A stretch of 61,363 bases of DNA, the filler included. It is 5 parts of 5 records of this genome, joined end to end, with 100 filler letters (N's around TTAATTAATTAA, not from the genome) between each part and the next. Parts side by side here need not be neighbours in the genome. Positions count along the whole stretch, not along the records: positions 14,127 to 22,242 come from SRR2962707_689; positions 22,343 to 31,645 come from SRR2962707_690; positions 31,746 to 55,257 come from SRR2962707_693; positions 55,358 to 61,363 come from SRR2962707_729; 1 more part is not named here. One strand, written 5' to 3'. Position 1 is the stretch's first letter. Every line of letters begins with the position of its first letter. Positions 14,522-61,361 of the stretch are shown one piece after another. The notes beneath the pieces are model-generated. The model was not told where the DNA came from. It saw nothing but the letters and a program-made list of their open reading frames with translations, and did no database searches. The position numbers were made by a program, and so were the translations under genes.

Positions 14522-17500
14522 ATGTCCTCACTCGAGCGGCCTGGTGGAGGCACAGCAGCAGCTGCCACCGCGAATGACATGGATGTCTACACGAGTGAGT
14601 ACCTAGCCGACGTGCTTGAGATCATTGCCCAGTGCTCGCCGCGTGACTCAGACGACTCACCTTTGGTGAAGCGTGTGGAGGCGATGGTCAGGGGCGCACC
14701 GCTGAGGCCGAAAGAGGCAGCTGTGTTGCTGCACTGGGCTGCGCAGGTGCGACGCGAGTTTGTGTTTTGCTTTTGAATGCAGTGATCACGGGATTTAGTT
14801 GTGTCTTGCGTGAGCGGGTAGCGGAAGTTGAACCATTGCATTGCGGCAACCAGGTGGGCAATGTGCCTCTGATGCGGTGCGTGCTGCGCCACTTCCCCAC
14901 GTCGAAGAATTGCCCTTGCGCTGCTGCCGATGGAAACACTGCCCTGCACATTGCGGCCGCTGAAGGCCACCTAGCTGCGGTTCGTGGCTGGTGATTTGTC
15001 CACAACGAATGATGTGGCGGGCGACAGTGGAACAGTGAGGGGCGCATTTGGTGATTGTGCCGCTGTTGCCACGTGCGTGGTCAGGTCAAGTTTTTGGTCG
15101 AGAAAGCGAGGGTGAAAACGTCAGCGCGCAACGATCGGGGCGAATTGGCGATCTCAGTTACTCGACAGTACGCTGTCGCCATTTACCTTCTGCGAATGAT
15201 GTCGCTGGTGCGCGCTGCGTCGCAGCCAGGGCGCGCGTCCATGAAAGCTTCGCACGCAAACAATTTGCATGGGACAAGAGGAGGTTTGTGCAGGTCCTCA
15301 ACTGGATTAGTCGTTGCTTTCAGTGGAAATGCCATCTGACTTTGAACAATCTGCCTTGCGACAGGTCGGCTGTTTGATTACCTGGCCTTCGTCGAGGTCG
15401 GGGTGGGGCCGCCGCTGCGTAAACGGCAAATGGCCCAAGGGTGGACTCCGGCGCGAGTTTTGACGCGGTGCGTGTCATCCCCATGTTTGGTCGCATCGGT
15501 GCCTCATGTGCTTGGAAGTAAACTGCTATATGTGCACTGCTGCTTCTGGCGCAGCTTCCCAAGCGACGACTGGCCGGACTTTCGCGATGATGAAATAGAT
15601 TGGTGTGCGGCAGCACAATTTATTCCCCACCCTGAACCAGGGAATCCTTTTTTTCGCCATTTCCGAAACAGCAGTGTCAGCTCTCGTTCAACGCCCGACG
15701 ACCTTGCACCTCCGGAAAGCTCTGAGGTTCTGCCAAGTGTCGCTGATGTTGACGGTTTAGTTCCAGATCGGCAGCGGTAGGCAATTTATATTCTGTTTGT
15801 TTGTTTGCACAGTCCCATCGTTGTGCAAGGTGCTTTCATAACACTGGTCCGTTTTTCGGGCGGGTAGATACCGAGAATTGACAAAGGCCGCTGCCGAAGC
15901 GGTCACACGTACCCGCAGCGACGCAGAAAACGCGTCCATCATCGCGGACATGCTGGTGAGTCCATTGCGGATTTCTTGATATTTTCTGCTCTCGATTACC
16001 ATGCTCGTGGAGTTCATAGTCGTGCTGCCTGCTGGTGCTGCTGCGACTCTGGAAGCTTGATGCTGAAGTCGAGCTCACTCAAGCTCGAAGTCGCGGCCTT
16101 AACGCGTCCGCGACGAACGCGCGGCAGGCGCTGGCGGATAGATTACGCACGGAGTTGAAGCAAGCCAAGCGCCAGTCACAGAGATCCGCGCAGGCGGCGG
16201 CAGATGCTGCGCAAGCTGTTCGCGACTTTGAGCGGTACGTACTGCTGCCTCGACTGGACTCATTTTTTGATGATTCTACTTTGACACGCCATCTGATCGA
16301 TTCATGCGTGCGTTTCAACAGGACATACCTTTCGCACGGAAATGACGATAACCATCGCATGCGGACAGCCACGCGCCAACGCGCTTCAAGCAATTTCGTT
16401 GCGGCGTTGCTATCCCCGCCGAACGAAGGGGCTCCTGTGCATTCAGAAGCAGCTTCTGTGCATCATGCTGAGTCAAGTGTTGCCGATCTTGCGTCGGGGC
16501 ACAACACGTGGTCTTCCGGGGTGCGTGCGCTGTATGCAATACATTTGTGGTTGCAGTGCTTGCCAAATGCACCAACGCCTTGTGAAGCCTTGTAGGTGAT
16601 GTCTGTGCGTAAATCCGACACTGCAGGCAATTAGCTGGGTCAGCACGGATGCCCATGGGGACACATACTACTGCATGGCCGTGTATTTTCCGAGTCCCGA
16701 AGGCCGTTCTTCATCTGCTCTCATTTTAGTGTCTCATTGCCCTGTGTTCACACTGGGTCACTCGTTACTTCAAGCTCTTGTTGAACTCACGAATTTGCCC
16801 CACTCTCCACAGCATGGCCGACATATGTCGTCCGAAGCGAACGCCACAGGCAATGCGCCACGCGACACATTACACCGCATTAGCACCATGTCGTTTTTTT
16901 CCTTCGAATCCGCGGCTGAGCGACTGCGCCGTGCAATACCAGCCATTTTCCAACTCTGCGGACTCAACACAAAACTCCCGCTGGTCGACCCGGGAGCTGT
17001 AGCGAAAGTTGCGGCATCTGCAGATTCTACCGAAACCGCCATCAGCATGCTTGTGAAAGCAGCCGTGTACGTGCTTAGACTGCAATTTGCTGTGTAATCT
17101 GCTGAAGCGCCACTTCAACCAGTGTGGATCACCGCATGTTCGTTGCACAGATACTCACCGATGGCCAAGCTTTTGTTTGCAGCGGCCCCTGACGAGTTAC
17201 GGTCGCTCCCGGAAGTAGTCGGGCTCGCCAAACCCCCCAGACGTCTCTGCTGGAACTTCTTTTCAGTGAGCGAAGGCCAGTACTTTTCAGAACATCACAC
17301 AGGTACGGGCGGCACGAGCTTCGAAGTGCCATTGATTTCAAGTGTCATGGCTGACCTGTGTCTGTTGCACCTGCAGGGAGGCGCACGAAACTGTCTGTGT
17401 TGTCGGCTGACCTTCCTCCCGAAGCGTCTCTGCAAGCAAATGCCTTGCCGTTTTTGGAACATCACGCCCTTGAGTTGCTCATGCGATTCCTGTCGCCTTC

Positions 17501-20500
17501 CAGCATTGCTTCGTTGATTGGCGCTTTACTGGTGGAGCACAACGTACTTCTCCTTGCTCGGGACATTGAGGTGAGCTTCAGCTTATTCGCCAACTTTGCG
17601 TTGGGATGCCTGGCTTTGCAATGAGACTTCAGGTGAAGCCATGTCCCTCCCGTGCCCACCTGTATGTCAGCTTTTAGCCCCGGTGGCCGAAGCATTACGC
17701 AGTTTGCTCTTTCCACTTCGATGGGTGCAAGTGTACATACCTCTGCTGCCACGACCATTTTTGTCGATGGTGCAATCCCCCGTTCCGTTCATAATGGGCA
17801 CACACATCGACAACTATTCCATAGTTTCGCAGCATCTGTCAGCGCTACGATCCGCAGATGCCCATGGCACTTACGTGGTCAACCTGCATCGTGACGAAGT
17901 GGTACCTCCAATATTGTACAGCTCACAGGTTTGCCTTCGTTGACATGCGTCGCGGCTGTGTGAATGTGTTGACAAAAGAGTCCCGAACTTACCATTGGTG
18001 GTTCGTGCTGAATTGAAACAAGGGAGCTCCATCTCCCCCAGAAGCACTGCGGTTGACCATTATGTGGGCTCTGCAAGACCGTGGAAGCATTCAGCACTCT
18101 ATCGACACTCTGCTGGCAACTGCAGTGGAGCACTCAATGCCCCGAGAGCCGGCAGAACCGCGTTTAGAACCGCGTTTGCATGCATCCGCCCGGCACGCAC
18201 AGCATGTGGTGCTCAGCGATTCAAACCCGTTTGATGACCGTTCCCGGTGGACTTGTTTCGACCTAAGCTTGCCGCTGAACGGCAAAGGCAAACTTGGATT
18301 GGTGCTTCGTCGGGCAACTGCTCGCAGGTATGGACCCGCTTTCGTTGCACGTGCCTGCGGCACCCACCAACACGCTGCCTCAACACGCGCCTTGCAACCG
18401 ATGCGACTGCAGCGACCGACCGACCACCGCCAGCCGCGCATCCAGCGATACAGTGTTTCCGGCCTACTTGATGATCAATGGTTTTCGCGAAGATGCTGCG
18501 CCCGAAGTACGATGCCATGCAACAATTGCGCAGCGTAGAACGAAGTTTGAGGTTGACAGCCCTTACAACACACTACGCATGTTGATCAATTGTTGCGTTT
18601 GCTCAGGCACCCAAGGTGCTGAATGTTGGGGATGTAATTGAGTCCATAGATGGCCGGAGAACATGTTGCACGCAAGATGTTAAAGCGGCGTTGGTGTGTT
18701 GTGGCTGCTTCTTCCACCCAGTTGCAGTGCTTGGGTAGCAAGCACCACCACGCGTTCATTGAGCTTGTGTACTTGTTCGCAGAAAGCTGGGGGAAGTTCT
18801 GTGCGCATTCGTGGGTTTCGCGCTGTCTCGAAGCGAACACGTCGGCGCAAGGCCGGCCCCACAGGTGCGCACACCACACTCGACACCGCGCAAGCAGCAC
18901 CGAAAAGCTCCCGGTGGAAAGGGGGCATGTCTCGAAAGGAAGCTGTTCGTCTGCGCGGTCGCATGGTAAGTCCTGGGACACTTTTGCATGAGATCTGCAA
19001 CCACACAAGCTGAGCAGCAACGTTGTCGCTTAGCCTTTTTGTCCTAACACGTCGAATCATGTGCTCCGTGCGCCGCAGCTGGAAGCCATGTATCTGCTCT
19101 TGGGCCCAATGGACTTTGCGTTTATGTTGATAGAATCGCCGTCTGATAAGGACCGCCGGCGCGCATTGCGGCATCACCCACTAGGCTCAGCCTCGTCGAA
19201 GCCGGACGTGGAGACCGATGAACCAATCCCAACGCCAGACACAGGAACAGGCAACATTTTTTTGAATCAATTTTTGTGCACGAGTATGTTCCAGCGCTTC
19301 GGAACACAGTGTCTGTGCATAGACGATGATCAAGCAACCGACCTTCAGGTGAAGCGTGGCGTCGGATTTCCAAGCTATTTGTGTCGTTTTATCTGGGTCT
19401 ACCGTTGTTTATTGGTTTTCACCTTTTGTCGCGATCTGCATTGGTGCGCCCATTCAAGGCTCAGCTGAACTTGTTTTTGCGCTATGCACAAATTCGGAAT
19501 TCTGGGAACGGTTAGTGTGAATGAATGAATGGGTCGAAGCTGGAACTTGCTTGCGTGTGCGTGGTGAGACGTTGTATTAAGCAGTTCCGAACTGAATGTG
19601 GTGCTAGGTCGTGACAGTGCGCTCATTCAATGTTTCCCGGGTATTTTCGACAGCGACGGAGCCGCGTGGGAGGATGCTCCCGTGATGCATTCCGGTATAC
19701 CTCATCACTTGTTCACAGATTTGACTACGTTGTGGCGAGGAGTCTCTCAGCTTCGTTTTACTGCTTGGCTGCAGGGCGTTGGTATTCGGAAGTCGGCCAG
19801 TTTCTCTTTCACAACCAGGCAGACGCAAAAGCACTTCCTGCTTTGCAGTTTGCTGGGCGTTACCGTTTCCATGCCGGCTGCGCTGGAGACGAGCAAGCTG
19901 TTGCCAATTGCGTCAATGCGTTTCAATCTTTGGTCAACGTTCGGCTTCGGCGGATGGATTCACCCGGCAGCGAATCCGATTCTGACGATGAAAACGGCAA
20001 CGATTCACGCCGTGTTTGCGACGCCGACTTTTTCTGGCAGGCATCGGCGCCACCAATACTTCCTGGGAATCCCGCAATGGTTTCTGTTTCTGCGGTGCAT
20101 GGCGTCAACAACGCGAAAAGTGAGGCAGGCGCGGGAAGCGATGGTGACGACATTGATTGTGGCGTCGATGATGACAACCACGGCGACGCTGATAACGATG
20201 ATAGCGACTCTGAGTGGGTGTGGAGTGGGCGCGGGCGCGGGGCACAGGAATCTCCTGCGCACATGGAAGTCTATGACACAACGCTGACAACTACCAGCGA
20301 GGACACTGCCGAAAGCGACAACGAAAGCGTGGACAGTGTTAGTTCGGCGGAGATTGTGCCCCACTCTCCTTCGAAGTACGTTTTTCTCCGTTCGGTAGTA
20401 TATTTGCTAGGCACGCAGGAATGTATGTTGTTTGCACTTTCCTTAAATGGCTGGCACGATGTTCATGGCAGGCCTCCGCCTCCAATTCCCACGAATCCAC

Positions 20501-21739
20501 TTGACGCGCTCAATGCAACTGGGTCAGTTGAGGAGATCGCAGCACGTTTCATTAGTCCGGGCTTGTTTGATCAGGTGAGTGCATTCGTGAGTGTGGTGTC
20601 TTGACGGGACAGAGTGCATTTGTGGGACGCGTTCCGACTGTCGCTGTAAGCCTGTTGTAAACTCTTCCCTTCCGTTGCGCAAAAACTGGTGACGACCTGT
20701 GCAGACGCCCATGGCGCCAGATGAAATGGGCGTCGTGCAGCGTGGTGTGGCACACCTAGCGCAGTCTCTGTGCAACACTAGTCGTGGTGCGTCGCATGCG
20801 GCTTGCATGCACATTGGTGGCCTTGGCTCGCAAATGAATTTCCAAGCTGCAAATGCTTGTTGACTACTAAACATGTTTACATGTTTTGCTTCGGTTTGGT
20901 GCATTGCAGGGCGGGCTGCGCTGCACGCGCAAGCCCAAGAGCTTCGCTGTAACGACGAGGTTTGTGTCTTGCTGACTGCCGCATTCCGTGTTCAAAGTAG
21001 TTCGATGGTCCCATGCCGTTGCATGTTTTCATCCGGAAACAAAATAATGACCTGGATGTTTTCCGCTCCGCCCCTGTCACAGAACGCGCTGCGTTTCCTA
21101 GTTCAGCAAGTCGAAACCCGCCTCGTGCGCAAGGTGACCTCGCTTAGGTTTTGTTGCAAGCAGCGTCAGTTTTTATTGTTGCATGGCGCTCGCCTCACGG
21201 CAGCCTGGTGTGTGTGTCGATACAACCCACTGCTGTAGGTTTTGGCGTCGAGAGCGGACCCGCACCGTCATTGAGGGTTGATGCTTCCTCATTGGTGAAT
21301 AGTAGAACGTCGGTTGTTGCCTTCGAGCTGGCAGTCGTTTTATTGTTTGCCAGTCCTCGGTTAGACATCGGCACTTCACGGCCGTGCCAAGAGCAGCGAT
21401 TCGCAAGCGAGCTGGGGCACAGTTGAACTTGCTATTGTCGTAAAGTGTAACGAGTTGTGGCAGGAGCGTAAATCCGGTGATGACGGGTTCAAAAGGGATG
21501 GATTGAGAATGAATGCGAGGTCAGAGCGAGAGAATACACGGCAATCCGAAGAGGTGTCGTGTCATCCCCCGTTTCCCCGTTTCTGCAGCGAGGAAACGAA
21601 ACCCTCAGGTCCAAAGAGAGGTATATTGAGCCGTGCTTCACTCCGGGTCCGAATTCACGAATATATGTTTTTAATAACCTGCCTCAAGTGCATGTGTTCG
21701 CCGATCACGACTCACGAGCTGCGCTTCCAGTTCGTTTGA
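14522..21739 (+). CDS. Multi-exon eukaryotic gene: N-terminal ankyrin repeats, DENN (Rab GEF) module with an inserted PDZ domain, acidic C-terminal region; 3' end approximate
   Basis: Ankyrin motifs LLHWAAQ and DGNTALHIAAAEGHLAAVR. cDENN signature LIGALLVEHNVLLL / LLAPVAEALRSLLFPLRWVQVYIPLLP..SPVPFIMG. dDENN-like FLNQFLCTSMFQRF. PDZ elements GKLGLVL and LNVGDVIESIDG. Short GT-AG introns, e.g. 15777-15867 and 17067-17150. Confidence 0.7.
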
Positions 21740-22047
21740 CTGCGTTGCAGAGCTGCAGTCACAGATAGTCCTTGCCACCCCCAAGAATTGGTAGGTGCGG
21801 CTGTGGCAGGCACATTTTTCTGCATATATCCAATGGTCATTCGCGAGCAGCATAAACAAGCAGCTTGATGCCGTGCTGATCGCCAGCTTGTGCAGCCATC
21901 ACAGCGTGCCAACGACGTTGATAAGGCTCGGTGCCCGCATGGCATCCGCTTCCCTCCTTGCTCTCTCTCTCGCTCTTCTTGTCTCACTGCCAGATCTCTC
22001 GCTCAGCCTGTACAACTACTACCGGTATTTTCCGGTCGTTTATCTAG

Positions 22048-22242
22048 TGAGTGGGTGAGTGAGCGGGTGAGTGCGTGAGTGAGAGGGAGTCCATGTGGTT
22101 ATTAGCCCCTATGCAGATGTGTCACCGTCAGCCCGCATGAAATTCGGTATGTGCTTTGAACTGGGTCCTCACAGAAACCGTCGAAGCCAGCTGCCGTTAA
22201 CTCTCACCCTCGCACTCACTCACTCACTCCCTCTCACTCACT
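22048..22242. repeat. Degenerate (GAGT)n tract followed by a complementary (CACT)n tract at the contig end
   Basis: gagtgggtgagtgagcgggtgagtgcgtgagtgagagggagt at ~22049-22090 and ctctcaccctcgcactcactcactcactccctctcactcact at 22201-22242. Confidence 0.7.
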
Positions 22243-22342
22243 NNNNNNNNNNNNNNNNNNNNNNNNNNNNNNNNNNNNNNNNNNNNTTAATTAATTAANN
22301 NNNNNNNNNNNNNNNNNNNNNNNNNNNNNNNNNNNNNNNNNN
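22243..22342. other. Artificial contig linker 2
   Basis: 44 N + TTAATTAATTAA + 44 N. Confidence 0.99.
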
Positions 22343-25300
22343 GAGGACGAGCAGGAATGGGATCGGCTGGTCCGCACGAAAGTGAACGCTTTGTTCGCGT
22401 CCTCTGACGACGACGACGAAATCAGCGACGACAACGACGACGACGACGGTGAAGAAGAAGGCACTGCGAGTGGCACAATGTGGCTCTTGGAAGTGGAAGC
22501 CAAATCTGCCGCGCGGGGCGCCCTTCGCGCGTTGCCCCGCGATGTGCACATCCACCGTCGCGCCAATAGCTCAACTGTTTTCGCCATGGCGTACTTGTCC
22601 ACGCAAAGCGCTCGAGCCTTTGCAGCAGCGTGGGATCCCGTTGCTATCTTCCCTGCCCCTGATGAATTGAAGATTGCCCCTTCCGTTTACCTGTTGACGC
22701 ACCCAGAAGCAGTGGCATCTTTATTGAGCAGCAGTGGTGGGGCTGGTGAATCCACTATCCGACGCACATCGCTGCTCGATGAGGACGTCGAAATTCTGGT
22801 CATTCTCCACGACCCCGTTGATGCCGATTCTATCGCGAACGACCACGTTGCTGAGCTTCTCCGCAAATGCCAATCATGGTTGATGGCGCAAGGCATTAGC
22901 GGCAAAGCCGTTCGTGCCGGGGCTCGTCGACTCATTGTCTCAATGCGTCGCGGCGTTGCTGAGGTAGCATTGCCTGACTTGTTGCACAGAATTATATTAC
23001 CTCAACCCGAAGTGCTTTTTGTGGAGGCCCGCGAGCGATTCAAACTGCACAACCAGTTCGTACTCACTCAAGCTGCGTACTTTGTGTGCTCGATCTTGTG
23101 CGTTGCGTTGACTGTTGAGTTCAATTCTTTCACACATGCACGGCAGGTACTCCGCTGCGATCACTCAAAATGGGACGCTCACAAATGGAGCAAAACCCAT
23201 GTACGACAAGGGCTTGTCGGGTGCTGGACAGATTGTGGGCGTTGGTGATTCTGGCTTGGATGTCCGTTCCTGCTTTTTCTACGAGGCAGCAAACGCTTTT
23301 CCTCAGGATGGGGTGAATAACCTGTACGTTGGTTGCCGCCAGTGATTTGGACGACCAAATCGGTGATTTTACTCGGCACTACATCATTTTCCTCATACGT
23401 ATGCATTGAACCCTGCACGCGTGCTTGCCCTGATAGGTATCCCGACGCTGAAAAAGTGGTGCAGTACGTGGCTTTCGCCGACAACGTGGAAGGTGAAGCG
23501 AGCGGACATGGAACTCACGTTGCAGGATCCGTTGCCGCTTTTGGAGGATCGTCCACCGCTGTCAACCAAGGATCGCAGGATGAGATGGAGGATTACCGTG
23601 GCGTGGCGTACAATGCCAAGATTGCTTTTTTCGACATGGGTTACGCCGGCTCCTCTGGCTTGGCTGTCCCTGGTGATTTGTACGTTGTTTATGGCCAGTT
23701 GCAATCTGTTTTTGGGTGCAATCCGTGCTCGAATGTGTTGAGAGACTGAATCCGAACCGCGTGTATATCGTTCAATGTAGATACAATGACTTCCTGGGAA
23801 TTGCGTACGAGGCCGGGGCGCGTATCCACACCAATTCTTGGGGGACGGACGTCAATGCCTACACAACGACCAGTCGTGATATGGACCGCTACTCTTACGA
23901 CCACCAGGATTTCCTTGTGCTGGTTGCTGGTGGGAATTCAGGCGATGCTGGTTTCTACACGATTGGATCGCCCGCAACAGCCAAGAATGTTTTGGCAGTT
24001 GGTGCCTCCATGAGCAATGCTCTTGGATTCTCAGACGACACAACAGGGCCTTACTGCGGATCTGTCGCCAGTTGCACGAATTACTTCGTGGATTTAGCCG
24101 ATAATCTCGCTTCATTCTCTTCTCTAGGGCCCACTTTTGACGGTCGGATGAAACCCGACGTGGTCTCTGTTGGCTTCTACATTTCTTCCGCTTACAGCTC
24201 AGCGAACCCCAATTCGTTGACGTGTGCCGTCGAAGCAAAGGCTGGAACCAGCATGGCAACTCCAGTTACCGCGGGGGCAGCTGCTCTCATACGTGAATAC
24301 TTCGAAAACGACGGCATTGTTCCAATGGGTGCCCTAATAAAAGCGGCTCTCATTCATTCCGCCAGTCCACTTTCAGACCCGGACTGGGAACGAGGCATGG
24401 GCAATGACAACGTGCAACTTGATGGGGAAGTGGACACCAACCAAGGCTACGGGCTTATTGGTCTGCATCGTGTATTGTCCTTCGACGACTCTCCCTTTCA
24501 ACTCAAGTGCGTTTATGAGTCACTTTCATTGCATGCGTTGGTCGTTGTATTTGCATGTGGGATGATTCACCGCTTGACTGTTGGTTCATTGCAGATACTA
24601 CGGTGCTTGCAGTGGGAACTGCGAGGAGGAAGACTTCGCTGACCTTCCTAATGTCGAGGAAGACGGCGTTTTTGAGCGGGTGTTCCGGGTAGCTTCAGCT
24701 GATCAAGGTGGCGGTCGTGTTGCCCTTGCAGCGACCCTTGTTTACCACGACCCCGCTGCCAGCTCGTACACACAGAATTTGGCTTTGATTAACGACTTGG
24801 ATCTGGAAATTGTTGCCCCTGATGGAACCATTATCCTTCCACTTGCTCCCGGTGGAGGCACAGACGTCAACACCTACGACAACGCTGAAAAGGTAATCAT
24901 TCCTGTCGACGCGCTGGAGTTGGGCATGGAGTACAAAGTACGGGTGCGTGGCACCTCGGTTCCCATCGGGCCGCAACCGTTCGCGTTGGTTGTAACAGGA
25001 AATTTTGCACCAGAGGAAGTGGAGGATATTGTCGACGACATTGTGGCCGACCTCACGCAGTCGGGTGATCTTCAAGGCGAGGTTCAGGAAGCCAGCCCCG
25101 GCATCGCTGCGGGAATTGCCGTGTCAGGGTTTGTCATAGTCGGTCTCCTGATTGCCGTCGTTGTTTTGTTCTTCAAACAAGGAAAGTGGGCTTCCATCGA
25201 AGTCACACCGGCGGTCGTCTACGCCAGCGCCGCTTGCCGCATTGGGGAGCTTGTTTTTGCTGCTGTAGCAATGGCTTTGGTAGTCCGCGACACGCGCATC

Positions 25301-26044
25301 ATCATCTTTGCCAACGACCCTCCCCTGGCTTTTTCTGCTTGTGGCGGTGCTGGGCCTTATCTGGTGGCTCTTACAACGCTGGTGATTGTTACAGTCACCG
25401 GTCAAGTGGCACTTTTGCTGAAGTTCATGCTCGATGCGCCACTGTGGGTGGACCGTTTCATTGTTGCCGTCGATGCTATAATGATCGTGCTTGTCCTTGC
25501 GGGGATTGTGGTGGGGGCAGTCGCCACCTGTGGAATCTACTCGCTGTATTACCTGCCAGCGGCCATGTGCATCTTCGTCCTTCTCTTGCTTGCAGTGTCG
25601 TTCTGCCTTGCATTAGCTCGTCTTGTGGCAGTGGATGATGTGTTTAAGCCCGCGGCGGCCAAGAAAGGTGAACAGGCACAACAGCAAGACCCAGCAGCTG
25701 CGACGGGAGCCGCAGCAGCGCCAGCGGCAGCGCAAGACGACGCTGAAACCGGCGCGGCAGCCTCAGCGGCAAAATCGCCGCCAATGAAAAAAGAGGAACC
25801 AGCGAAATCGAAAGCCAAGGCTGCGCCTCCGCCAATTCCTGACGCACCGGCCACAAGCAAAAAGCCAACAGTTGCAGCCTTGTACGACTATGAAGCTGCG
25901 AATCCCGATGAGCTAACCTTTGGAGAAAGTGACACCATCGAGGTCACAAGCGTCGTCGATGAAGGCTGGGCCAGCGGTCGCAACACGCGAACTGGTAAAA
26001 CCGGGCTGTTCCCACGAAACTACTGCGACCCGTTCTCCATGTGA
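22343..26044 (+). CDS. Eukaryotic membrane-anchored S8 subtilisin (KP-43/TagC-like) with five predicted TM helices and a C-terminal SH3; 5'-truncated; inferred introns 23056-23146, 23324-23436, 23680-23780, 24507-24594
   Basis: Catalytic triad VGDSGLD, GHGTHVAGS and AGTSMATP; IHTNSWG, SPATAKN and GRMKPDV; C-terminal beta-domain INDLDLEIV..GPQPFALVVTG; SH3 ALYDYEAANPDELTF..EGW..GLFPRNY. The four GT-AG introns restore one continuous frame. Confidence 0.88.
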
Positions 26045-26279
26045 TGAAGCTGCGCTGTCCACGATGGGCCAGTTTCGATGCATTCGGCAACTGCACTTCG
26101 AAAAGACACAACCACGGATAATATTTAAACAACACAAGGCACACAGAACTCACTTTCTTATATTATTCATCCACACTTTTCGAATGTTGCTGCCTTAGCG
26201 CGAAAAATAACGGAATCAGAACATCGAGCAGGATGTTGGACATGCGAATCAAGTGAATCCAATTGGGGAACAATCATCT

Positions 26280-31521: not shown

Positions 31522-31614
31522 CGCGCTCGCTCACTGACAGAACGGAACGGGCACCAGCCCTGCCACCGCTTCTGTCTGTTTGGTTTTGTGAATCCTTGCC
31601 GTTGACTCGCTCTC

Positions 31615-31645
31615 AAACAACAACAACAACAACAGCAGCAGCAGC
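31615..31645. repeat. (CAA)n(CAG)n microsatellite at contig end
   Basis: aacaacaacaacaacaacagcagcagcagc. Confidence 0.85.
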
Positions 31646-31745
31646 NNNNNNNNNNNNNNNNNNNNNNNNNNNNNNNNNNNNNNNNNNNNTTAATTAATTA
31701 ANNNNNNNNNNNNNNNNNNNNNNNNNNNNNNNNNNNNNNNNNNNN
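31646..31745. other. Artificial contig linker 3
   Basis: 44 N + TTAATTAATTAA + 44 N. Confidence 0.99.
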
Positions 31746-49382: not shown

Positions 49383-49440
49383 ACCGATTACTGTAACCAG
49401 CTGTAAATAAAGCACAAGGGGGAATTTTAGCTAAATATCA

Positions 49441-49480: not shown

Positions 49481-49502
49481 CAATCAATCTGAGGGCTTTC
49501 TC

Positions 49503-52298
49503 TTACCCTACGGCATAATCCGCCATTGGAGGGCATGTGCACACCAAGTTTCGATCCCCATGAACATTGTCCACGCGGCCAACAGGTGCCCAATATTTCG
49601 TAGCAATATCAACGCCCTGCGGATAGGCAGCAAGTTTGCGCGAATAAGGATGCGCCCACTCATCTGCAATCAAAACCTCAGCGGTATGTGGCGCATTATG
49701 AAGCGGATTATCATCCTTCGGCCACACGCCGTTTTCGATCTGATTTGCCTCTTCAGCGATCGAAATCATCGCATTAATAAATCTGTCAATTTCTTTCAAA
49801 GGTTCAGATTCAGTTGGCTCCACCATCAATGTGCCTGCTACAGGCCACGACATCGTTGGCGCGTGGAAGCCATAATCGATCAAGCGCTTGGCTACATCAT
49901 CAACGCTCACATCCGCGCTGTCTTTGAGCACGCGCACATCGACAATACATTCATGGGCGCATTGACCATTTTTGCCCGTAAACAAAATCGGATAATGATC
50001 TTTCAAACGCGCAGCAATGTAGTTCGCGCTTAAAATAGCCACCTGACTGGCAACACGAAGACCATCGCCGCCAAGCATTCGAATATACATCCAAGAGATC
50101 GGAAAGATAGACGCAGAACCTTGCGGCGCGGCACTCACGGCGCCTTTGCTGCCGTCATATTCGTGACCCGGCAGATAAGGCACCAGATGGGCTGCAACGC
50201 CAATCGGGCCAATACCAGGACCACCACCGCCATGCGGAATACAAAATGTTTTATGCAAGTTCATATGGCAAACATCTGCGCCAATATCGCCCGGACGCGC
50301 AATGCCAACCATCGCATTGAGGTTTGCACCATCGAGGTAAACCTGCCCGCCATGCGCATGGATAATCTCGCAAATTTCAACAATGCGCTCTTCAAACACG
50401 CCATGAGTCGAAGGATAAGTAATCATGAGCGCCGCAAGATTTGCGCTGTGCTGCTCTACTTTTTCTTTCAAATCACGAAGCGACACGTCGCCTTCGTCAT
50501 TACATTTGACAACCACAACCTGATAATCGGCCATCTGCGCAGAAGCTGGGTTTGTGCCATGTGCCGAAGACGGAATAAGACAAATATTGCGGTGGCCCTG
50601 ACCATTGGCCTCGTGATAGGCGCGGATCGTGAGCAAGCCTGCAAATTCGCCTTGGCTGCCGGCATTGGGCTGCATCGTGCATTTAGCAAAGCCGGTAATT
50701 TCAGAAAGCCAATTATCCAGATCATCAATGATCGCTTGATAGCCAATTAAATGTGAAGCGGGTGCAAAGGGATGAATATTGCCAACATTTTCCCATGTTA
50801 CCGGCATCATCTCTGCGGCGGCATTGAGCTTCATGGTGCATGAACCCAGCGGGATCATCGCGCGGTCTAGCGCCAAATCCTTATCCATCAATTTACGCAG
50901 CAGACGCATCATGTCGGTTTCGCTTCGGCATGAGTGGAATATTTCTTGGCTCAGAAAATGGCTAACATCGCGTGCGCTTGGCAGCGCCGGTTCAGCGGCA
51001 ATCGCCAGATCAGCACCAAAAAGTGCACATAGAGCCGCCAGATCTGCCTCAGTCGAGGTCTCATCAAACGCCACCGAAATCGTGTCGCCATCTATCACCC
51101 GCAGCAAAATATCCTGCGCCAGTGCGGCATCGCAAATGGCGTCAGCACCGCCAGCAACATTGACAGTAATCGTATCGAAGAAGTGGTCGGCCACATCAAA
51201 GCCTTTGGCTTCAAGTGACTTTGCAAAACGCGCGGCAAACCCGTGAACACGCATCGCAATGTCATAAAGGCCCTTTGGTCCATGCCAAATCGCATAGGCA
51301 GCAGCCATATTGGCAAGCAACGCTTGAGCGGTACAAATATTGGATGTCGCCTTTTCGCGGCGAATATGTTGCTCGCGTGTTTGCAAGGCAAGTCGGTAAG
51401 CGGGCCTTCCCTGAGCATCTATAGACTGGCCAATAATGCGGCCCGGCACCATGCGCGTCAGCGCTTCAGTCACAGCCATATAGGCAGCATGGGGACCACC
51501 ATTGCCCATCGGCACGCCAAAGCGCTGCATCGAACCAACACAAATATCTGCGCCCCAAGTCGCTGGTGTATCAAGCACAACGAGTGACAATGGATCGGCA
51601 GACACGATCACTAATGCGCCCGCTTCTTTGGCTTTTGCGACGATTGAAGTTGGATCAGACAACACACCTTTGGTGTCTGGCAATTGCAAAATAACAGCGG
51701 CAACATCGCCGTCGATGTCTCCCATATCAATGGAATAGTCCGCCGCGCCTGCGCGGGTGTTGAGCACATCAAGCGTTTGCGGATGCACCTCATTCGCAAC
51801 CACGATGCGGCTCTTCTTGCCCCTAAAGTGACGGAACGCCAGACCCGCAGCTTCAGCAACAGCGGTCGCCTCGTCCAGCAACGATGCATTGGCAATCGGC
51901 AGGCCGGTTAGTTCTGAAACCAGCGTTTGGAAATGAAACAACATTTCCAAACGGCCTTGCGAAATTTCAGGCTGATAAGGCGTATAGCTCGTGTACCAAC
52001 CTGGATTTTCAAGCATGTTGCGCTGAATAACCGGCGGAAGGAATGTGCCGTGATAGCCTTGGCCAATCATCGCTTTGGCAATTTTGTTTTTGCCCAGCTT
52101 CTCGGCAATCTCAGCCAACGCTGCTTCTTCACTCACGCCGTCTGGCACATTAAGAGCGCCCTTCATGCGGATATTTTCAGGCACTGTTTGCCCAATAAGA
52201 GCATCCAAAGACGTCATGCTCAACTTATTGAGCATATGACGTTGGTCGGCATCGCTTGGTCCAATGTGGCGCGCAAGAAAGGGAGAAAAAGTCGACAT
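49503..52298 (-). CDS. gcvP: Glycine dehydrogenase (glycine cleavage P protein)
   Basis: [48 protein letters not shown] and the PLP site [18 protein letters not shown]. Confidence 0.97.
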
Positions 52299-52393
52299 AA
52301 TTTCGTTCCGATTATTAAGGGCGTTGGTAGAAAAGCCAAATGGCTTTTCCGTTCAAACGCGACAAAACAAAGATTTGAGCTAACTAAAACCGC

Positions 52394-52762: not shown

Positions 52763-52773
52763 AGTCTGCCTTT

Positions 52774-53850: not shown

Positions 53851-53890
53851 TTCCAGACAATTTGAGGCACAGATCCGCGACTGCAGAACT

Positions 53891-54100
53891 GCCCCCTCTG
53901 TCTTTGGCCTGAGAGACTCGTCCTCACGATAGATGCGAGAACTTACACCGTCGGCGCAGGTCTGTGGACCTGACTTTCCAGAGCGTTCCAGATCTTGCGA
54001 TCTACCATCAGCGGTCCTTTTGCCTGAGAGATTTCGGGTATTTCACCTTCGGCGGCAACCTTGCGGCTGCACTCTCCCACTGAATGGCCTAGACGAATCC
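53891..54100 (-). ncRNA. Tandem glycine riboswitch upstream of gcvTHP
   Basis: Aptamer 1 (~54087-54005): GGGAGAG..GCCGAAGGTGAAA..CTCTCAGGCAAAAGGACC. Aptamer 2 (~53984-53891): CTCTGGAAAG..CGCCGACGGTGTAAG..CTCTCAGGCCAAAGACAGAGGGGG. Confidence 0.95.
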
Positions 54101-54226
54101 AGACAACTAAATGTCGTATACAGGCGATCCCAATTCTTGTCACGCCAGATTCTGCGTTTCCAACAGCGAAAACGGGCGCTGAACCATGTCCAGCGCCCGT
54201 TACGTAACCAATTAATTGGTAATCGC

Positions 54227-55255
54227 TTATTTTGTAATGATTTCCGGCCCCATCATCGTGGTTGGAAGCCATGTCGAGATAATCGGCACATAAGTGACGA
54301 GCAGCAAGAACACGAACATGATCCCAACCCATGGTGCTGCGGCTTTCACCACATTAATCACCGACATTTGCGCCACACCGGCGGTCACGAAGAGGTTGAG
54401 CCCCACCGGCGGCGTAATCATCCCAATTTCCATGTTCACAACCATGATGATGCCTAAGTGAATTGGGTCAATACCAAGCTCAATCGCAATCGGGAACACC
54501 AACGGTGCAACGATAACCAACAAGCCTGACGGCTCCATAAACTGGCCGCCGATCAGCAAGATCACATTGACCACAACAAGGAACATGATCGGACCAAGTC
54601 CTGCAGAAAGCATAGCCTGCGTAATGGCCTGCGGTATCTGCTCATCGGTCAGCACATGTTTCAAGATCAACGCATTGGCGATGATGAACATGAGCATGAT
54701 CGTCAGCTTGCCCGCTTCAAACAGCGCCTGCTCCGTATCTTTATGGAAAAACGCGGTGACAAGCGCCATTGGCTTCTGCAGCAAATTCAAATTCTTTTGA
54801 CCTTCTTCTTGCTTGAGCGGCCCCATATCGCGGTAGACAAAATTGGCAACAATAAAAGCATAAACCGCAGCAACCGCAGCTGCTTCTGTCGGCGTGAATA
54901 TGCCGCCATAAATGCCGCCAAGGATGATGATGATAAGGAATAGACCCCAAAAAGCTTCACGCCCCGCCGACATTATTTCGCCAATACCCGCAAATGGCTG
55001 TGATGGCAGACCTTTAAACTTTGCATAAATATATATGCCGAGCATCAACATGAAACCCGCAATCAAACCCGGGAACACGCCGGCCAAGAACATGCGGCCA
55101 ACCGATACGTCTGTCGCAGACGCATAAACAACCATGACGATTGAAGGCGGAATTAGAATACCAAGCGTACCTGCATTACAAATAATACCAGCCGCAAACT
55201 CCTTAGTGTATCCCACTTCACGCATACCCGCGATGACGATGGAGCCGATGGCAAC
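54227..55255 (-). CDS. dctM: TRAP transporter large permease (C4-dicarboxylate DctM type), 5'-truncated
   Basis: AGTLGILIPPSI, SVGRMFLAG, GIYGGIFTPTEAA, LGIDPIHLG and GMITPPVGLNLFV. Confidence 0.92.
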   Translation of the reverse strand, partial: VAIGSIVIAGMREVGYTKEFAAGIICNAGTLGILIPPSIVMVVYASATDVSVGRMFLAGVFPGLIAGFMLMLGIYIYAKFKGLPSQPFAGIGEIMSAGREAFWGLFLIIIILGGIYGGIFTPTEAAAVAAVYAFIVANFVYRDMGPLKQEEGQKNLNLLQKPMALVTAFFHKDTEQALFEAGKLTIMLMFIIANALILKHVLTDEQIPQAITQAMLSAGLGPIMFLVVVNVILLIGGQFMEPSGLLVIVAPLVFPIAIELGIDPIHLGIIMVVNMEIGMITPPVGLNLFVTAGVAQMSVINVVKAAAPWVGIMFVFLLLVTYVPIISTWLPTTMMGPEIITK

Positions 55256-55257
55256 AA

Positions 55258-55357
55258 NNNNNNNNNNNNNNNNNNNNNNNNNNNNNNNNNNNNNNNNNNN
55301 NTTAATTAATTAANNNNNNNNNNNNNNNNNNNNNNNNNNNNNNNNNNNNNNNNNNNN
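55258..55357. other. Artificial contig linker 4
   Basis: 44 N + TTAATTAATTAA + 44 N. Confidence 0.99.
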
Positions 55358-55358
55358 T

Positions 55359-58300
55359 GGTGCTGGTGCTGGTGCTGGTGCTGGGACCGGTGGTCGTTCA
55401 GTGGGGCCCGGAGCTGGCGCTTTGACTGAGCCTAGCAATAGCCACTCACCGCCATTGGACCGCTTTGATCCAGAAACCGCGCAAGTGTTGGCACATTTGC
55501 GTGAAAGAAAAGCAACGGCCATTCGTCTCGAAGACTATGACGAGTGCAAGCGATTGAGACATGCTGAGTCGTTGGTCGAGCGCGCGGGAGGCGCACTGGC
55601 ACAGCTTGAAGCGCAGAAGATAGCTGCAGTGCGGGCGGAAGACTATGGGGCTGCAAAAGATCTGAAAACCCGCGTCTCCCTCCTTCGGCAGGGCATGCTC
55701 CAGGATCTGGATTCAATTCTGAATGGACAGGGAGAGGTGGGATCAAGTAGGCCAACGATGCCGCCCATGCCGCCAAGCGAGCAGCACAATAGTCGCGCGG
55801 AAAGCGAACGAGCAGGGGCTTCCAACCACCTGTCGCGTGGAACGAGGGGGGCGGTTTCGCCGGATCCCCGTGGGCCGGGAGACACTGGCGGCCTCTCAAG
55901 TCATGGGAGTCCAGAGGGGCCGCAAAGGCAGGGGCGGGCCCTCGAAGTTTCTGGCCCAACGCTTAGTAATAGTCAAGTGGTGCATGAGGATGGAGATAAC
56001 ATTCAGCAGTCACGGCCCCTGCTTCCGGTTCCAGAACTGCCCAAGGCGAGAAACGGCCACCCAATCGAAGAGCGGCCGCTCCCAGGGACTGGGACATACG
56101 ATCGCGACACGGCCAACCCATTTGGAACTGGAGCTTCTTCATCAGAAACTCCAAATGCGTTACGTCGTCCACAAGAACATTTCCCCCCCGCAAAGGCATT
56201 GGGCCAAGCTCCCGCAGCAAGGCCAAGCTCACAGCGCGGAAGTACGGCCATGGACAATGACAATAACAACAGAAAGTCGACTGAACCTGATGTGAAATTA
56301 ATCGGCTCCATTGGGCGCGAGCACCCCCTCTTCGGCACACCTGGTGTTGATAAGCTACCAGAGCCGAAATCACTGAACGCTGCAGATCGAGAAGCAATGG
56401 TGGATGTGATAACGTGTTTCGGACCGTACTTGACTCGCTGCTTTCGAGACAAGACATCATGGGGCCTCCGTGTCGCGGCACTGGGGAAAATGCGAGAGGC
56501 GTTGCTTCGGCAGACCGAAATACACCCATCCCTTGTTGCTGCTTTGAAAAAAATCTTCCACGCCACGGTCAATGACTCAGTCGTTCATGTGTTCATGGCG
56601 TCTATTGACTTCGCCAATGCTGTTCTCGACGAAGGTGCGAAACACTTAGTCTACAATGTCGCTGGTCGTCAACTGTTTGCTTTAGACTTTGCATTTGCTC
56701 ATGCTTGGATGCGTGTTGCTTGCGTGTGTGGGGTGCGACTGCTTGTACACAGGTCCAACTCTGTCGCAGAGTCAGCTGCGTTCAGCCCTTGGTGAATTTG
56801 CATCACATTTGCTGGCTAAGCGAGCTGGGGACAACAACAGTCGATGTGCCTCCAGCGCCCTGGACACTTTAAAACTGATGACAGAACATGCGGTACTTGG
56901 GCCAACGTACATTCCAGGGCTTGCTCTGGGAATGCGTTTGAAGCCACGTGCACCAAAGAAGCACGTGCTGGCTCGCCTGTCATACTTGGAATGGCTGCTT
57001 CGCCATGGCGATTTCAAGGCAGCCTGTGGCGGAGGCGCAAATGGCTTCCCAGGTGACTTTGTGGTATTTGTGTGCCGAAACAACCTCGTCACGCACGCGG
57101 ACAAGGCTGTGCGTCAGGGGTCGAAACAGCTTCTTGTTGACGTTGCAGAACGTGCGGGAAGTGCGGCAATAGAACAATATCTAACCAACCTTCCCAAAAA
57201 GGCACGCGCTGACCTTGAACGACGCTTCCAGGAAGCTGGTGTTGGTCCCGAAGCATCTCCGAGTCAGCTTCGACAGCCGCCAACAAAGCCACAAGGCAGG
57301 AAGAAGAATACTCGAAGCGATGCCAACAAAGATGTCGCCGACAGCCAGGATGCTGCTCACCCACAGCCTTTGAAGACGGCTGCGTTTTCGTCTCGTTCGC
57401 AGCCTTCGCGACAGCCTGAGGATGGCGAGGACGGTCAGCAGCACCCAGCACTTCACCAGAGTCGTGTGCAAAGTGGTGCAGATCGCGTCGATGCAGCCAT
57501 TCGAGCTGCAGTTCAGTTGGAACGACAGACTCAGGGCCCCACTCGCTCCCGCAATCGTGATGCTGGTGACGAAGAAGATGTTGCTGGATTGGAGAGTGAC
57601 CACATGGACGAGTATTCGGAACCAGACAGACCGTCTGACCGTGGGACTGGGCGAAGGGAGGGCGGCCGACTTGAGCCCCCTTCCTTTGATGACACTGGTC
57701 CGCTCGAGGAGGATATCGGCGAATGGCGCGAGGCCTACAACAATACGGGGGCTGATCCAATGGATGACTTCGACGATGAAGATTCTGTGGAGAAGCCCTT
57801 TACCTGCACTTTCTGTCTCCGACACGACCCGTCGTTCACGCCAGAAGAGTTGGACCATCACTATTGGGCATCGTGTCCAATGTTGCTGGTAAGCACATCG
57901 CATTTGCATTGAGGACTTGGAATGCTCGGCAGGAGTATGGTGGCGGCCTTGTACTTTTTTTTCATTCTCAATCCACTATTTGGATAGTTCCTTCATCTGC
58001 TTCTGGCAACTGCTGCCGTTTTGTGCAGGCCTGCCCGTTCTGTGAAAATATTATCGAGGTTGCTGATCTCGAAGACCATATTCGTGAAGATGAATGCGAA
58101 AATGCCAAGGTTGGAGTGGAATTTGATCCCCGTGCTTGAAATGCAAACAGTGTCCGCTGTTTTACACCGGTTTTTCATGCTCAAGTTTTGTCTTTACGCT
58201 GGCAGGCGACAGTTGAGTGCGACGAATGTCGATTTTTCATTTGGAGTGATTCCGTCGAAGAGCACCATCGAAATGGTTGCCCCGGAGCTGCGCGGCGTCC

Positions 58301-58528
58301 AGGTGACCATTTTAGGTTCGTGGTTGAATGGGAGACTCGTTTTGCAAGCTTGGGTCCATTGGGTGTGTTTCTTGGGAAGTTTCACCGGCACACCGGCTTC
58401 TTGCGCGCAGGTGTCCTCTTTGCTTTGAGGAGTTTCCGCAAGGTTCGACGGACCAGAACTGGCAAGCTTGGCACCACCATTTACATCAATGTCGGGCCAA
58501 TACGCGTCTTCGACCCGTGCAGCAGTGA
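55359..58528 (+). CDS. CEP104: CEP104/FAP256-like ciliary-tip protein, 5'-truncated; inferred introns 56635-56752, 57889-58028, 58110-58205, 58316-58410
   Basis: Paired coiled-coil repeats (KATAIRLEDYDECKRL / KIAAVRAEDYGAAKDLK), TOG-like region (LPEPKSL..SWGLRVAAL) and four C-terminal Zn fingers (CTFC..HYWASC, CPFC..H..C, CDEC..H..C, RCPLC..H..C), in the CEP104 order. Confidence 0.85.
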
Positions 58529-58982
58529 TTTGCATAAACGGAATATTATATTTGGGCATTCTCTGGACTGACGTACTTCTTTGCGACGACAGAAATAACT
58601 GTTGGGTCGTTGTTGTCGCCAGTGTGTTTCGTCATTTTGGTGCATAAGATCCCTGTTTTTGAAGCTGCCCTGAGATTATGGTCGAGTCTTGAGGGGCACG
58701 TTTTCAAAGCAAAGAGCTCGCACGGAAGACCCGGAGGCTCACTGTTAACGCCACACGCCCGCCAGAACAATTTTAATAACATGTCGTGTAAACACCCCAG
58801 AATTGTGGATGTTGGTACATTTTTTCATTTTTCATTTTTTTTTTGTTATTTTTTTTATTTGAAGCAACGATAGATGATGCGCGAGTGCCTCTTTTTCACA
58901 GGTTTGCAGCAACGAGTGTATTGTTTGTTGTTTGAGGATGAGAAATTCCTTTCGTCGCATTTCTCACACAGAACCTGTTTGC

Positions 58983-61361
58983 CTATTGCCCATTTTTCGT
59001 GCCTGAGCGCCTAAATTCCTGACCGAGCGCCACGGCAGTCTTCACCAGCTCCGCTGCGTCTTTAAGAGATAATTCTTTCATGGCACGCACTGCACGATGC
59101 TTTGCGTAAGGGTAACTGAAAAAACACGAAGTCGTATAGAAATGAGGAAGGAGCACGATACATGAGGGTTCGCTGCAAACAAGCGTAGGACATTCATTGA
59201 AGGAACGTGAGTGCGTACGCTGCAGTGAATATGTCAAACTCCGGGTTGCCAGTCAACGCGATCCCCTCAAGCACGACAAGTGCGCGAGTCACCAATGCAA
59301 AGTACTCTGGAACGGTGAAAGGGTACCTGCGCCACCGGCATTTGCACAAATGACGCACGTGTTCGAAGCGCGTGGCACCGTTTTTGAAATAAAAGAGTGT
59401 CTACGAACCGGAAAAATATGTCGTTCAAATCTTGGCTAACAGCTCCGAATTTCTTGCGCCGGCGGGAGATCGCGGAGTACTCTGACGGCGGTGCACTGTC
59501 TCCACTAATCGCAGCATTTTTAATTGCGACTCGGCCTTGATTCAAGACTTCTTCGAGAGCAGGCCTGCCGAGATTGAACAGCAAGAAAGTGATGGTCCTG
59601 TTCGGTGCAGCAGCACAATGAGCATCACAGAGTTAGTCAAAAATAAAACACAAACGGACTTAAGCGTGTCCAAATCCGCGTCGCTGCCAAGAAAGCCGAG
59701 CGCAATTCCATCTTCCAGAAGCGACTGAATGTCGTTATCCATTAAGTGCACCAATGCAGCCGTTAGGCGTACCATCGATAACCTACAGAATGAGTACCAA
59801 TCAGATTCGCATGTGTGCTGCAAGCTCGCACACAGAGGAAGAGCTAATTCATTTCACGTACTGTCCGAGCGTCGCACACAGGCCAAAATCTAACAAAACC
59901 AGCCGTCTTTTACCTGAAGGACAATCAGGTGCAACTTCGTCCTCCACGAAAAGATTCCCTGGCAGCAGTTGTTCGAGTGAGTCACTTTCGAGCCGAGTGA
60001 AGCAGTGTGTTGCAGCAAGCACGAGTCGAGCCGGATGACACAAAACCCAAACCTGGATGCGGATCGGAATGAAAGCGGCCGAGCTCCAACAATTGTATCA
60101 GAAAACACTCAACGCCGATTGGAACAAGGCGCTCGATTTCTTGCGGAGCAGAAGATGCCAGTGGAGTGCCCTGAATCCATTCAGTGCACAGAACTTTGGA
60201 AGAGCTTGCCGACCACATAACTTGTGGAACGTACACATCTCCCTAAAACAAAGTTCAAAGTCAGTGTTACTGGTCGCCAAAAAAAGCAGGCGCGCAGGGC
60301 CGCCAGAAAAAATGGACAGCGGGTGCTCGGCAAACCAAGCCCTCAATTAACGCACGCACCGGCATACGAGCTCGTAGCTCGCGGGCAAAGTAATCTTGAT
60401 TTTCACCTTCGTGCACATAGTCAAGCTCGTGGAGAGAGGCTCGTGCGAAAGTATCAAGCAGTTGAACGTCGAACTGCCGCCGTCTGGCAACCCACGTCGG
60501 AAAATTCGTCATCAAGAATTCTTTGAAAGATTCGACAAACCGAAGATACCTGGTCAAAAACACAGCAGCGCAGCCAATGTCGGAAGTTTAAAATTTGAAT
60601 TTTGGAAACGGCTGGCAAACGAACAATCATGCCTGGCGTGCTTTCAAGCCTATGGCGTACCGGCGAATGAGGAAAAGATCCAACGTGACGCTACGAAGCA
60701 TATCTGGTCGTTGCACCTTCACTGCAACTGTTTCGCCTGTGGAGCGCAGCCGGCAGCGGTACACCTGACCAAGCGATGCAGCGGCTATAGGTAAAGTGCC
60801 GGGCCCCAAGTCAAGAAACACTTCCTCAACCGGGCGTTGAAGCTCTGTCTCGATCAGTCGCAGGGCATCGGTTGTGCTGTACGGAGGAACCGAATCGCAC
60901 AGCTTTTGCAGCTCCGCGAGGACGGGTGTTGGGAGAATATCCGGCCGAATGGAGAGCATTTGGCCGAACTTGATGAATGTTGGGCCAAGGTTGGTCAGAA
61001 TCTGTCGAAACTCTCGAGCAGCGGCAGTTTGGCGGCTTACCGTCTTTTCCGCAGACTCGTCACCCGCACTGGGCGGGTTGATCTTCGCCGTCCACACCAA
61101 CTTCAGCGCAAACGGCAGGATCGCCAGTGCGATGCTCACGAGGCGCTGTGCCGCAACCGCCTTGTGCTGGGTCCAGAATGCCTCCAGCGCAGCGCTGTCG
61201 TAGTCTGTAGACAGTCCTTCATCCGTCAGTGTGGCCAGATCGTGCAGTGCGTATCGATGCACTGCGAAGCCACTCACAGTTGCCAGGCCCAGCACCTGGG
61301 CTGCTCTGCGAGTCCACTTCCAAGAAGACTCCGGGTTGTTGTGGTTGTTGTTGTTGTTGTT
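58983..61361 (-). CDS. ABC1/UbiB atypical kinase, multi-exon, 5'-truncated
   Basis: LGPTFIKFGQMLSIRPD, AAASLGQVY, VAVKVQRP, ELDYVHEG, TEWIQG, HSDPHPGNL (spliced), LLDFGL and VPEYFALVTRALVVLEG. GT-AG introns include 60550-60660, 59327-59408 and 59116-59218. Confidence 0.88.

Follow-up and report, generated by a model that had tools for sequence, protein, structure and literature searches.

Why should the introns of a marine protist interrupt the same position of a codon again and again, directly in front of a tyrosine codon? This question is raised by a 61,363-base stretch of DNA (herein the window, meaning the whole stretch that was analyzed), in which an earlier note had listed 11 introns from four unrelated genes. 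Each of these introns splits a codon after its second base (phase 2), and the exon that follows starts with NTAY, that is, with the last base of the split codon and a codon for tyrosine (Tyr). The earlier note had ascribed the pattern to a transposon that inserts at TA. The 11 introns, herein called the Tyr-class, form a class apart from the other 19 introns that were verified in the same genes. The observation is real, and its origin from a transposon is partly supported.

The window is composed of five pieces, located at 1-14026, 14127-22242, 22343-31645, 31746-55257, and 55358-61363. The spacers between them (14027-14126, 22243-22342, 31646-31745, and 55258-55357) all read 44 N, TTAATTAATTAA, and 44 N. 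The linker is artificial, contains stop codons in every one of the six frames, and indicates that the window is a concatenation of separate contigs. Pieces 2, 3, and 5 (23.4 kb) are eukaryotic and carry short GT..AG introns, and pieces 1 and 4 are bacterial, not protist, with long intronless open reading frames (ORFs). One transcript-derived protein, P0121, is 100% identical to piece 2 and bears the eukprot label INCI16041.1.p1. The prefix INCI is one which we take to stand for Incisomonas marina, a heterotrophic stramenopile. The protein label thus suggests that the protist is a relative of Incisomonas.

The intron borders were verified by three kinds of evidence, and each of the 11 Tyr-class intervals given below starts with GT and ends with AG. 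On piece 3, a gene for a subtilase with an SH3 domain (22343-26044, plus strand, open at the start of the piece) contains four introns, all of which are Tyr-class: 23056-23146 (CA|G TAC), 23324-23436 (CT|G TAT), 23680-23780 (TT|A TAC), and 24507-24594 (AA|A TAC). The ankyrin-repeat gene of the same piece (26280-31521, minus strand) contains three introns. Two of them are Tyr-class, 31174-31339 (CA|A TAC) and 30637-30819 (TT|A TAC), and the third, 29643-29768, is in phase 0 with GTTG as the start of the next exon. A single 9039-nt contig of sequencing run X1 exactly skips all seven of these introns. Run X1, which was mapped on 22343-31645 alone, is of the RNA type by guess only. The contig reads as spliced RNA because the seven GT..AG intervals are missing from it and both reading frames stay open. 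The earlier note had proposed to check the junctions by RNA reads, and the contig agrees with the junctions that the note gave for its six introns on this piece.

On piece 2, P0121 (1147 amino acids) aligns exactly from its first to its last residue to a DENN-domain gene (14522-19465, plus strand), which gives 17 exons and 16 introns. Two of these introns, 15777-15867 (CG|A TAC) and 17067-17150 (GT|A TAC), are Tyr-class and are defined by this exact spliced alignment. On piece 5, the ABC1/ADCK-type kinase gene (58983-61361, minus strand, with its 5' end cut by the window) contains seven introns, three of which are Tyr-class: 60550-60660 (CG|G TAT), 59327-59408 (CG|G TAC), and 59116-59218 (GC|T TAC). 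These three were placed via homologues at about 50-58% identity. The best match in the ABC1 protein search was 58% identical, and the organism's own protein was not among the matches. The spliced ABC1 model aligns with the homologue P0006 in one segment (amino acids 30-544, 52% identity) that is gapless at all seven junctions. The contig, P0121, and the homologues therefore confirm all 11 GT..AG introns of the earlier note, in four genes on three pieces.

The resulting census includes 30 verified introns from four genes on the three protist pieces, within 23 kb. Removal of the intron is seen in 7 of the 30 as a skip in the spliced contig and in 16 as absence from the transcript-derived protein. 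A gene finder placed three of the seven ABC1 introns wrongly and merged bacterial genes, and it was never the sole basis for counting an intron. Four candidates were left out of all counts, and none of them precedes Tyr: 19511-19718 and 20376-20471 (gene finder, both phase 2), and, in a CEP104-like gene, 56635-56752 (phase 1, by eye) and 57889-58028 (phase 0, gene finder and by eye).

All 30 introns have the borders of spliceosomal introns, GT..AG with a G at donor position +5 (donors GTNNG, 30/30), and the 11 Tyr-class introns are ordinary U2-type introns today. The start of the downstream exon does resemble the aag|ATAT pattern of Physarum, which would be expected if these introns were of the U12 type and removed by the minor spliceosome. 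None of the 30 donors matches the U12-type 5' splice site RTATC[CT], and no TATCC motif was found in them. The U12-type identity was rejected on this basis, and we regard it as very improbable.

Phase 2 is the commonest with 16 of the 30 introns, followed by phase 0 with 11 and phase 1 with 3. The order of phases is 0, 0, 1, 2, 2, 0, 2, 0, 2, 1, 0, 0, 2, 0, 0, 0 in the DENN gene and 2, 0, 1, 2, 2, 2, 2 in the ABC1 gene. TAY follows 11 of the 16 phase-2 introns, with next-exon starts of ATAC (6), GTAC (2), GTAT (2), and TTAC (1). The earlier note had estimated about five phase-2 introns that break the rule, and the census contains exactly five. Three are in the DENN gene and defined by the P0121 alignment: 15468-15554 (next exon C TTC), 16235-16321 (G ACA TAC), and 18328-18412 (C GAC). 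The other two, 59783-59861 (G TTA) and 59565-59659 (G CCT), are on the minus strand in the ABC1 gene and come from the homologue-based model.

Is such an excess expected by chance, especially as the cases had been hand-picked in the earlier note? A phase-2 position followed by NTAY accounts for only 0.71% (0.0071) of the 13186 positions in the four coding sequences, and the 11 Tyr-class introns among 30 correspond to p = 1e-16. Within the phase-2 introns, 11 of 16 precede Tyr compared with 2.1% expected (p = 1.5e-15). On piece 3, where the contig defined the introns and the analyst made no selection, 6 of 7 are Tyr-class. These results rule out chance or hand-picking for the window, and the probability left to such an explanation is negligible.

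The exons around the Tyr-class introns are also different. The other 19 introns have the usual exon context, with A at -2 in 10/19, G at -1 in 16/19, and G at +1 in 13/19. In the Tyr-class, the G at exon -1 is present in only 3 of 11 (p = 0.0045). The exon base at +1 is A at six of the 11 introns, G at four, and T at one; among the others, A is found there in only 1/19 (p = 0.0045). The four coding sequences contain 93 Tyr codons in the frame of NTAY, and the wobble base ahead of them is A in 14 (6 with an intron), G in 32 (4), T in 21 (1), and C in 26 (0). A therefore precedes Tyr at 6 of 11 intron sites compared with 8 of 82 intronless Tyr codons (p = 0.0012). Two of the codons that the +1 A yields are TTA, which makes up 6% of the codons for Leu, and one is GTA, at 7% of the codons for Val; both are rare. 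From the amino acids encoded, 3.0 split codons ending in A would be expected, and 6 are observed (p = 0.035). Exon position +4 is C or T at a ratio of 9:2, the same as the TAC:TAT usage of 83:17. This match to codon usage indicates that the specific signal lies only in the in-frame TA at +2/+3, which is invariant in 11/11, and that the Y is forced by the genetic code.

The reading frame of the signal provides the main argument for an insertion. NTAY follows none of the other 19 introns. In the four coding sequences, NTAY occurs 93 times in the Tyr frame and 99 times in the other two frames, so that 48% of the sites are in the Tyr frame; the intron sites are in this frame in 11/11 (p = 3.4e-4). 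The restriction was also found with RTAY (10/10 intron sites compared with 51% of all RTAY, p = 1.2e-3) and with the exact 4-mers ATAC, GTAC, and GTAT (61% Tyr-frame background, p = 7.5e-3). Such a restriction points to selection on the protein, because a process that involves only DNA or RNA is blind to the frame and an exchange of one base is not.

The frame bears directly on the alternative that the earlier note had offered, an unusual exon preference of the spliceosome. In its class-specific form, an exonic R-U-A-Y after the 3' splice site would replace the usual AG|GT...AG|G context, the motif might pair with the GUAC start of the intron or bind a factor, and introns would persist where the motif was fixed. 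The TA at +2/+3 is indeed invariant, GUAC is self-complementary, no hallmark of a transposon was seen, and compensation for the missing G at exon -1 is plausible. The frame, however, is left unexplained, since about half of the RTAY motifs are off-frame and yet 11/11 intron sites are in the Tyr frame and 0/19 other introns have NTAY. The A at +1 is contrary to the G preference of the organism, and GTAC donors are present in only 5 of the 11. The invariant motif of this alternative thus holds, but a general preference does not predict the junction statistics, and we consider such a splicing requirement unlikely.

A second alternative is an exact 4-base target-site duplication (TSD) of GTAY, as in the introners of Symbiodinium. 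The 5' copy would serve as the donor, the element would bring the AG, and the mRNA would be exactly restored. The structure NNNN|gtac...ag|GTAC is the one published for dinoflagellate introner-like elements (ILEs; 4-nt TSD of GHNN) and Symbiodinium introners, in the parts of those sources available to us, and it leaves exon -1 unconstrained, as observed. It predicts a G at +1, where A prevails in the Tyr-class, and a drift from G to A is unexpected given the G preference. Exact restoration also leaves the frame free, and yet the frame is fixed in 11/11. This duplication appears improbable as the source of the Tyr-class.

The explanation that we favor, at somewhat below even probability, is that a mobile element inserted into coding DNA at in-frame G|TA sites (NNG TAY) and so gave rise to the Tyr-class, with the wobble base derived from the element. 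The element would duplicate TA or be flanked by TA. The G before the target and the first T would become the 5' splice site, and the ...YAG together with one extra base, mostly A, would be supplied by the element. The spliced mRNA would then read NN, the element base, and TAY, with one exonic base swapped (G to A). An insertion of this kind is harmless only at the wobble base, which gives phase 2, and as TAA and TAG are stops, the next codon has to be Tyr. This geometry also predicts that G is missing at -1, that A is overrepresented at +1, and that some of the donors have drifted away from an original GTA; the "lost" exonic G would now be the first base of the intron. The footprint is then phase 2, A or G plus a Tyr codon, and G absent from exon -1. 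Since the insertion, the inner sequence of the elements would have decayed, and the junction footprint alone would remain. The wider form of this proposal is slightly more tentative: about one third of the introns in a heterotrophic stramenopile may stem from a TA-targeting element that was active in an old burst and left a footprint at the codon level that outlives the element sequence. If there was a burst, it was old. The junction statistics, the frame, and the bases at exon -1 and +1 all agree with the part of the earlier claim that concerns insertion at TA.

Several results weigh against this insertion at in-frame G|TA. An all-versus-all blastn of the 30 window introns gave a best pair of 24.0 bits, within the 19.7-26.8 bits of 20 shuffled sets. 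The remark of the earlier note that the introns look unlike each other was thus correct, and sequence-similar copies, by which introners are recognized, are missing among the 30. Terminal inverted repeats beyond the shuffles were found in 0/11 Tyr-class introns, at a threshold score reached by at most 5% of 200 shuffles. No locus-specific duplication beyond the common TA(C) was detected, and matches within introns equaled matches between introns. T, A, and C are common to both intron +2..+4 and exon +2..+4, and a 2-base duplication of TA is indistinguishable from this consensus. The element ends implied by this model (CGT... and ...YAGA) do not form inverted repeats with each other. No transposase turned up in the window ORFs scanned, a scan that was not exhaustive. 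Tc1/mariner, named in the earlier note, is only one candidate for the source family; neither inverted repeats in the 11 introns nor a DDE transposase in the scanned ORFs was found. The donors with TA at intron +2/+3 (GTA) follow only a trend, with 7/11 compared with 6/19 (p = 0.13). The earlier note had counted five GTAC donors and read them as an echo of the exon start; the count stands at 5/11, but the echo does not rise above background (4/19 in the others, p = 0.23). Median length (101 nt in the Tyr-class and 95 nt in the others) and G+C content (0.48 and 0.51) do not differ between the two classes. The frame test loses force if the real target motif is longer than 4 bases, and 30 introns are a small sample.

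Two observations were made on single introns during this search. The phase-0 intron 18507-18606 of the DENN gene contains, close to its two ends, an inverted repeat of 10 nt (GCAACAATTG / CAATTGTTGC) whose score was matched in 0/200 shuffles, the only such case among the 30. Two neighboring Tyr-class introns in the subtilase gene are identical at 16 of the 20 bases at their start (23324-23343 and 23680-23699), and at 10 of 14 past the donor hexamer; when all pairs are taken into account, this likeness does not exceed chance.

A third alternative is an insertional route without TA duplication, such as a recombinase-type crossover in a TA(C) core or reverse splicing at sites that pair with the 5' end of the intron. 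The footprint at the junctions would be identical to that of insertion at in-frame G|TA, and introners have been reported from many transposon orders, some without TSDs, in the source texts available to us. Nothing in the window points to a particular element of this kind, and reverse splicing into RNA would be blind to the frame unless one base was also exchanged. Such a route is rather doubtful, a little more so than the class-specific splicing requirement. Overall, the proposed insertion at in-frame G|TA accounts for the data better than the alternatives do and parallels a scheme already in print, and to this extent it is partly supported.

When could the introns have been gained? Thirty metagenome loci related to the ABC1 gene were examined. 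Twenty-five of them were uninformative, with a single frame read through (transcripts or intronless genes), and frame changes were found in five (L002, L003, L021, L022, and L027). At ABC1 site 1, before the Tyr of LIRR|Y, no interruption is present in L002, L003, and L021. L002, L021, and L022 likewise lack an intron at sites 6 and 7. The readable Tyr-class positions are thus intron-free in the three intron-bearing relatives that could be read at each site, which may weakly hint that the Tyr-class introns of ABC1 were gained lineage-specifically. These relatives are distant, at only about 50% identity, and intron-poor. A phase-0 intron of L021 lies two codons away from the phase-0 intron 60243-60359 of the window, at what is possibly the same ancient position. 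For the ankyrin-repeat gene, a metagenome scan with the large exon gave no relative.

The alignment also shows the age of the tyrosines. Tyr is the consensus among homologues at two of the three Tyr-class sites of ABC1, those of 60550-60660 and 59116-59218, and at 59327-59408 the homologue P0006 has Phe. The possibility that the insertion itself made the Tyr codon was rejected, since Tyr is conserved at these two sites. The Tyr is therefore old at both, and the introns were placed at pre-existing Tyr codons. Phe differs from Tyr by one base, and two phase-2 introns precede Phe, the verified 15468-15554 (C TTC) and the predicted 19511-19718 (A TTT). From their sequences, these could be decayed members of the Tyr-class.

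The remaining verified introns of the DENN gene, all on the plus strand, are 14747-14853, 14980-15084, 15284-15364, 15956-16055, 16521-16626, 17303-17376, 17571-17670, 17929-18022, 18507-18606, 18694-18782, and 18966-19078. On the minus strand, they are 29643-29768 of the ankyrin-repeat gene and 60243-60359 and 59959-60052 of the ABC1 gene. P0121 may run into an unspliced intron at its C-terminus, from about FLCTSMFQRFG to the stop at 19465. A candidate canonical intron at 19284-19464 (GTATGT..CAG, phase 1) would connect a further open frame (ELVFALCTNSEFWER...) in the region 19284-19720. The stretch FL-T-MF--F presumably resembles the dDENN motif, which speaks against this unspliced-intron reading. 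Downstream, the protein P0123 (19615-20604), the only match in a further protein search, was called as an ORF on the window's own assembly; it has a non-ATG start and crosses the predicted intron 20376-20471. It was dropped as intron evidence, since it reads through that intron and results from prokaryote-style gene calling on a eukaryotic contig.

On piece 3, the X1 contig spans both the subtilase gene (plus strand) and the ankyrin-repeat gene (minus strand), which are convergent with their stops about 240 nt apart (26041-26283). The two genes may overlap or meet at their 3' ends, or the assembly may have fused them in a chimeric contig. The ankyrin-repeat intron 31174-31339 contains a (GT)n / (GTGTAA)n microsatellite and is hence among the two longest introns.

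The bacterial pieces encode a methyl-accepting chemotaxis protein, periplasmic binding proteins, MalF, propionyl-CoA carboxylase, methylmalonyl-CoA mutase, GcvP, and PutA, together with a row of CP-ATPgrasp, Alpha-E, and transglutaminase genes. PutA is 64-68% identical to PutA of Rhizobiaceae across its whole length. These pieces indicate that the underlying assembly contains, besides the protist, at least one organism that resembles an alphaproteobacterium. A tandem glycine riboswitch with two aptamers (61.9 and 52.7 bits) was found at 53888-54089 on the minus strand of piece 4. It lies upstream of, and on the same strand as, the ORFs leading to the P protein of glycine cleavage (49503-52352).

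It is not yet settled how bursts of intron gain come about and what share of the present intron load is due to them. Introners are recognizable only while their copies are still alike. If the pattern in the window held genome-wide, the geometry of insertion would mark the coding frame durably, by phase 2 ahead of Tyr and a wobble base derived from the element, and old bursts would be countable from junctions alone, long after the element had decayed. The phase-2 bias, which is the opposite of the usual bias, would also gain a mechanistic reason. The literature text that was searched, with subscription journals and supplements outside the search, contained no link of phase 2 or Tyr codons to intron gain or introners.

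The proposed insertion can be compared with several known systems. In Tc1/mariner and other DNA transposons that target TA, and in their miniature inverted-repeat transposable elements, TA is the target and is duplicated. Unlike these transposons, the Tyr-class introns carry no inverted repeats; no DDE transposase was found in the ORFs scanned, and the implied ends match no terminus known to us. Introners are transposon insertions that create introns with varied recruitment of splice sites, and some of them alter adjacent codons, according to the parts of the reports available to us (PMC9860276, PMC12130899). They are defined there by sequence-similar copies, unlike the Tyr-class introns, which show no such similarity. 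The word "phase" occurs in the text of neither report and "codon" does not occur in that of PMC12130899, with the supplementary tables outside the search.

In dinoflagellate ILE class 1, the base before the TSD and the first base of the TSD form the 5' splice site, as described in the available portion of that preprint (10.1101/2020.10.14.339549). The Tyr-class is similar in that its splice sites would come from the TSD or the preceding base and its phase bias from the needs of the insertion site. Unlike the ILEs, which are multi-copy families with TSDs of 3-8 nt, the Tyr-class has no family similarity, and its bias is for phase 2 before one codon. The introner elements of Amoebophrya are described, in the excerpt available, with direct repeats of 3-5 nt over the exon/intron borders, inverted repeats of 8-20 nt, and mostly non-canonical splice sites (PMC7789003). 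The TA(C) common to the intron and exon starts of the Tyr-class may correspond to such short direct repeats, but here all 30 introns are GT..AG and inverted repeats are found in 0/11 of the Tyr-class.

The published parallel is that of Physarum polycephalum. Thousands of U12-type introns (rtatctt...aagATAT) are present in this slime mould, and an origin from a TA-target transposon has been proposed for them (10.1101/2020.10.12.336362). In the proposed scheme, TA is duplicated, the R before the target is lost, the 3' A of the element is gained, and the frame is kept. The consequence of phase 2 before a Tyr codon was not found in the accessible text of that preprint, where "phase 2" occurs only in a supplementary legend on U2-type introns. 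The Physarum introns are U12-type with rtatctt donors and inverted ends (TCTT...AAGA), unlike the U2-type introns of the window, which have GTNCGT donors and no inverted ends left. In both cases, the downstream exon begins A-TA-Y after ...AG and the proposed geometry is the same. If the pattern held genome-wide, a mechanism so far proposed only for slime-mould U12-type introns would extend to the ordinary U2-type introns of a stramenopile.

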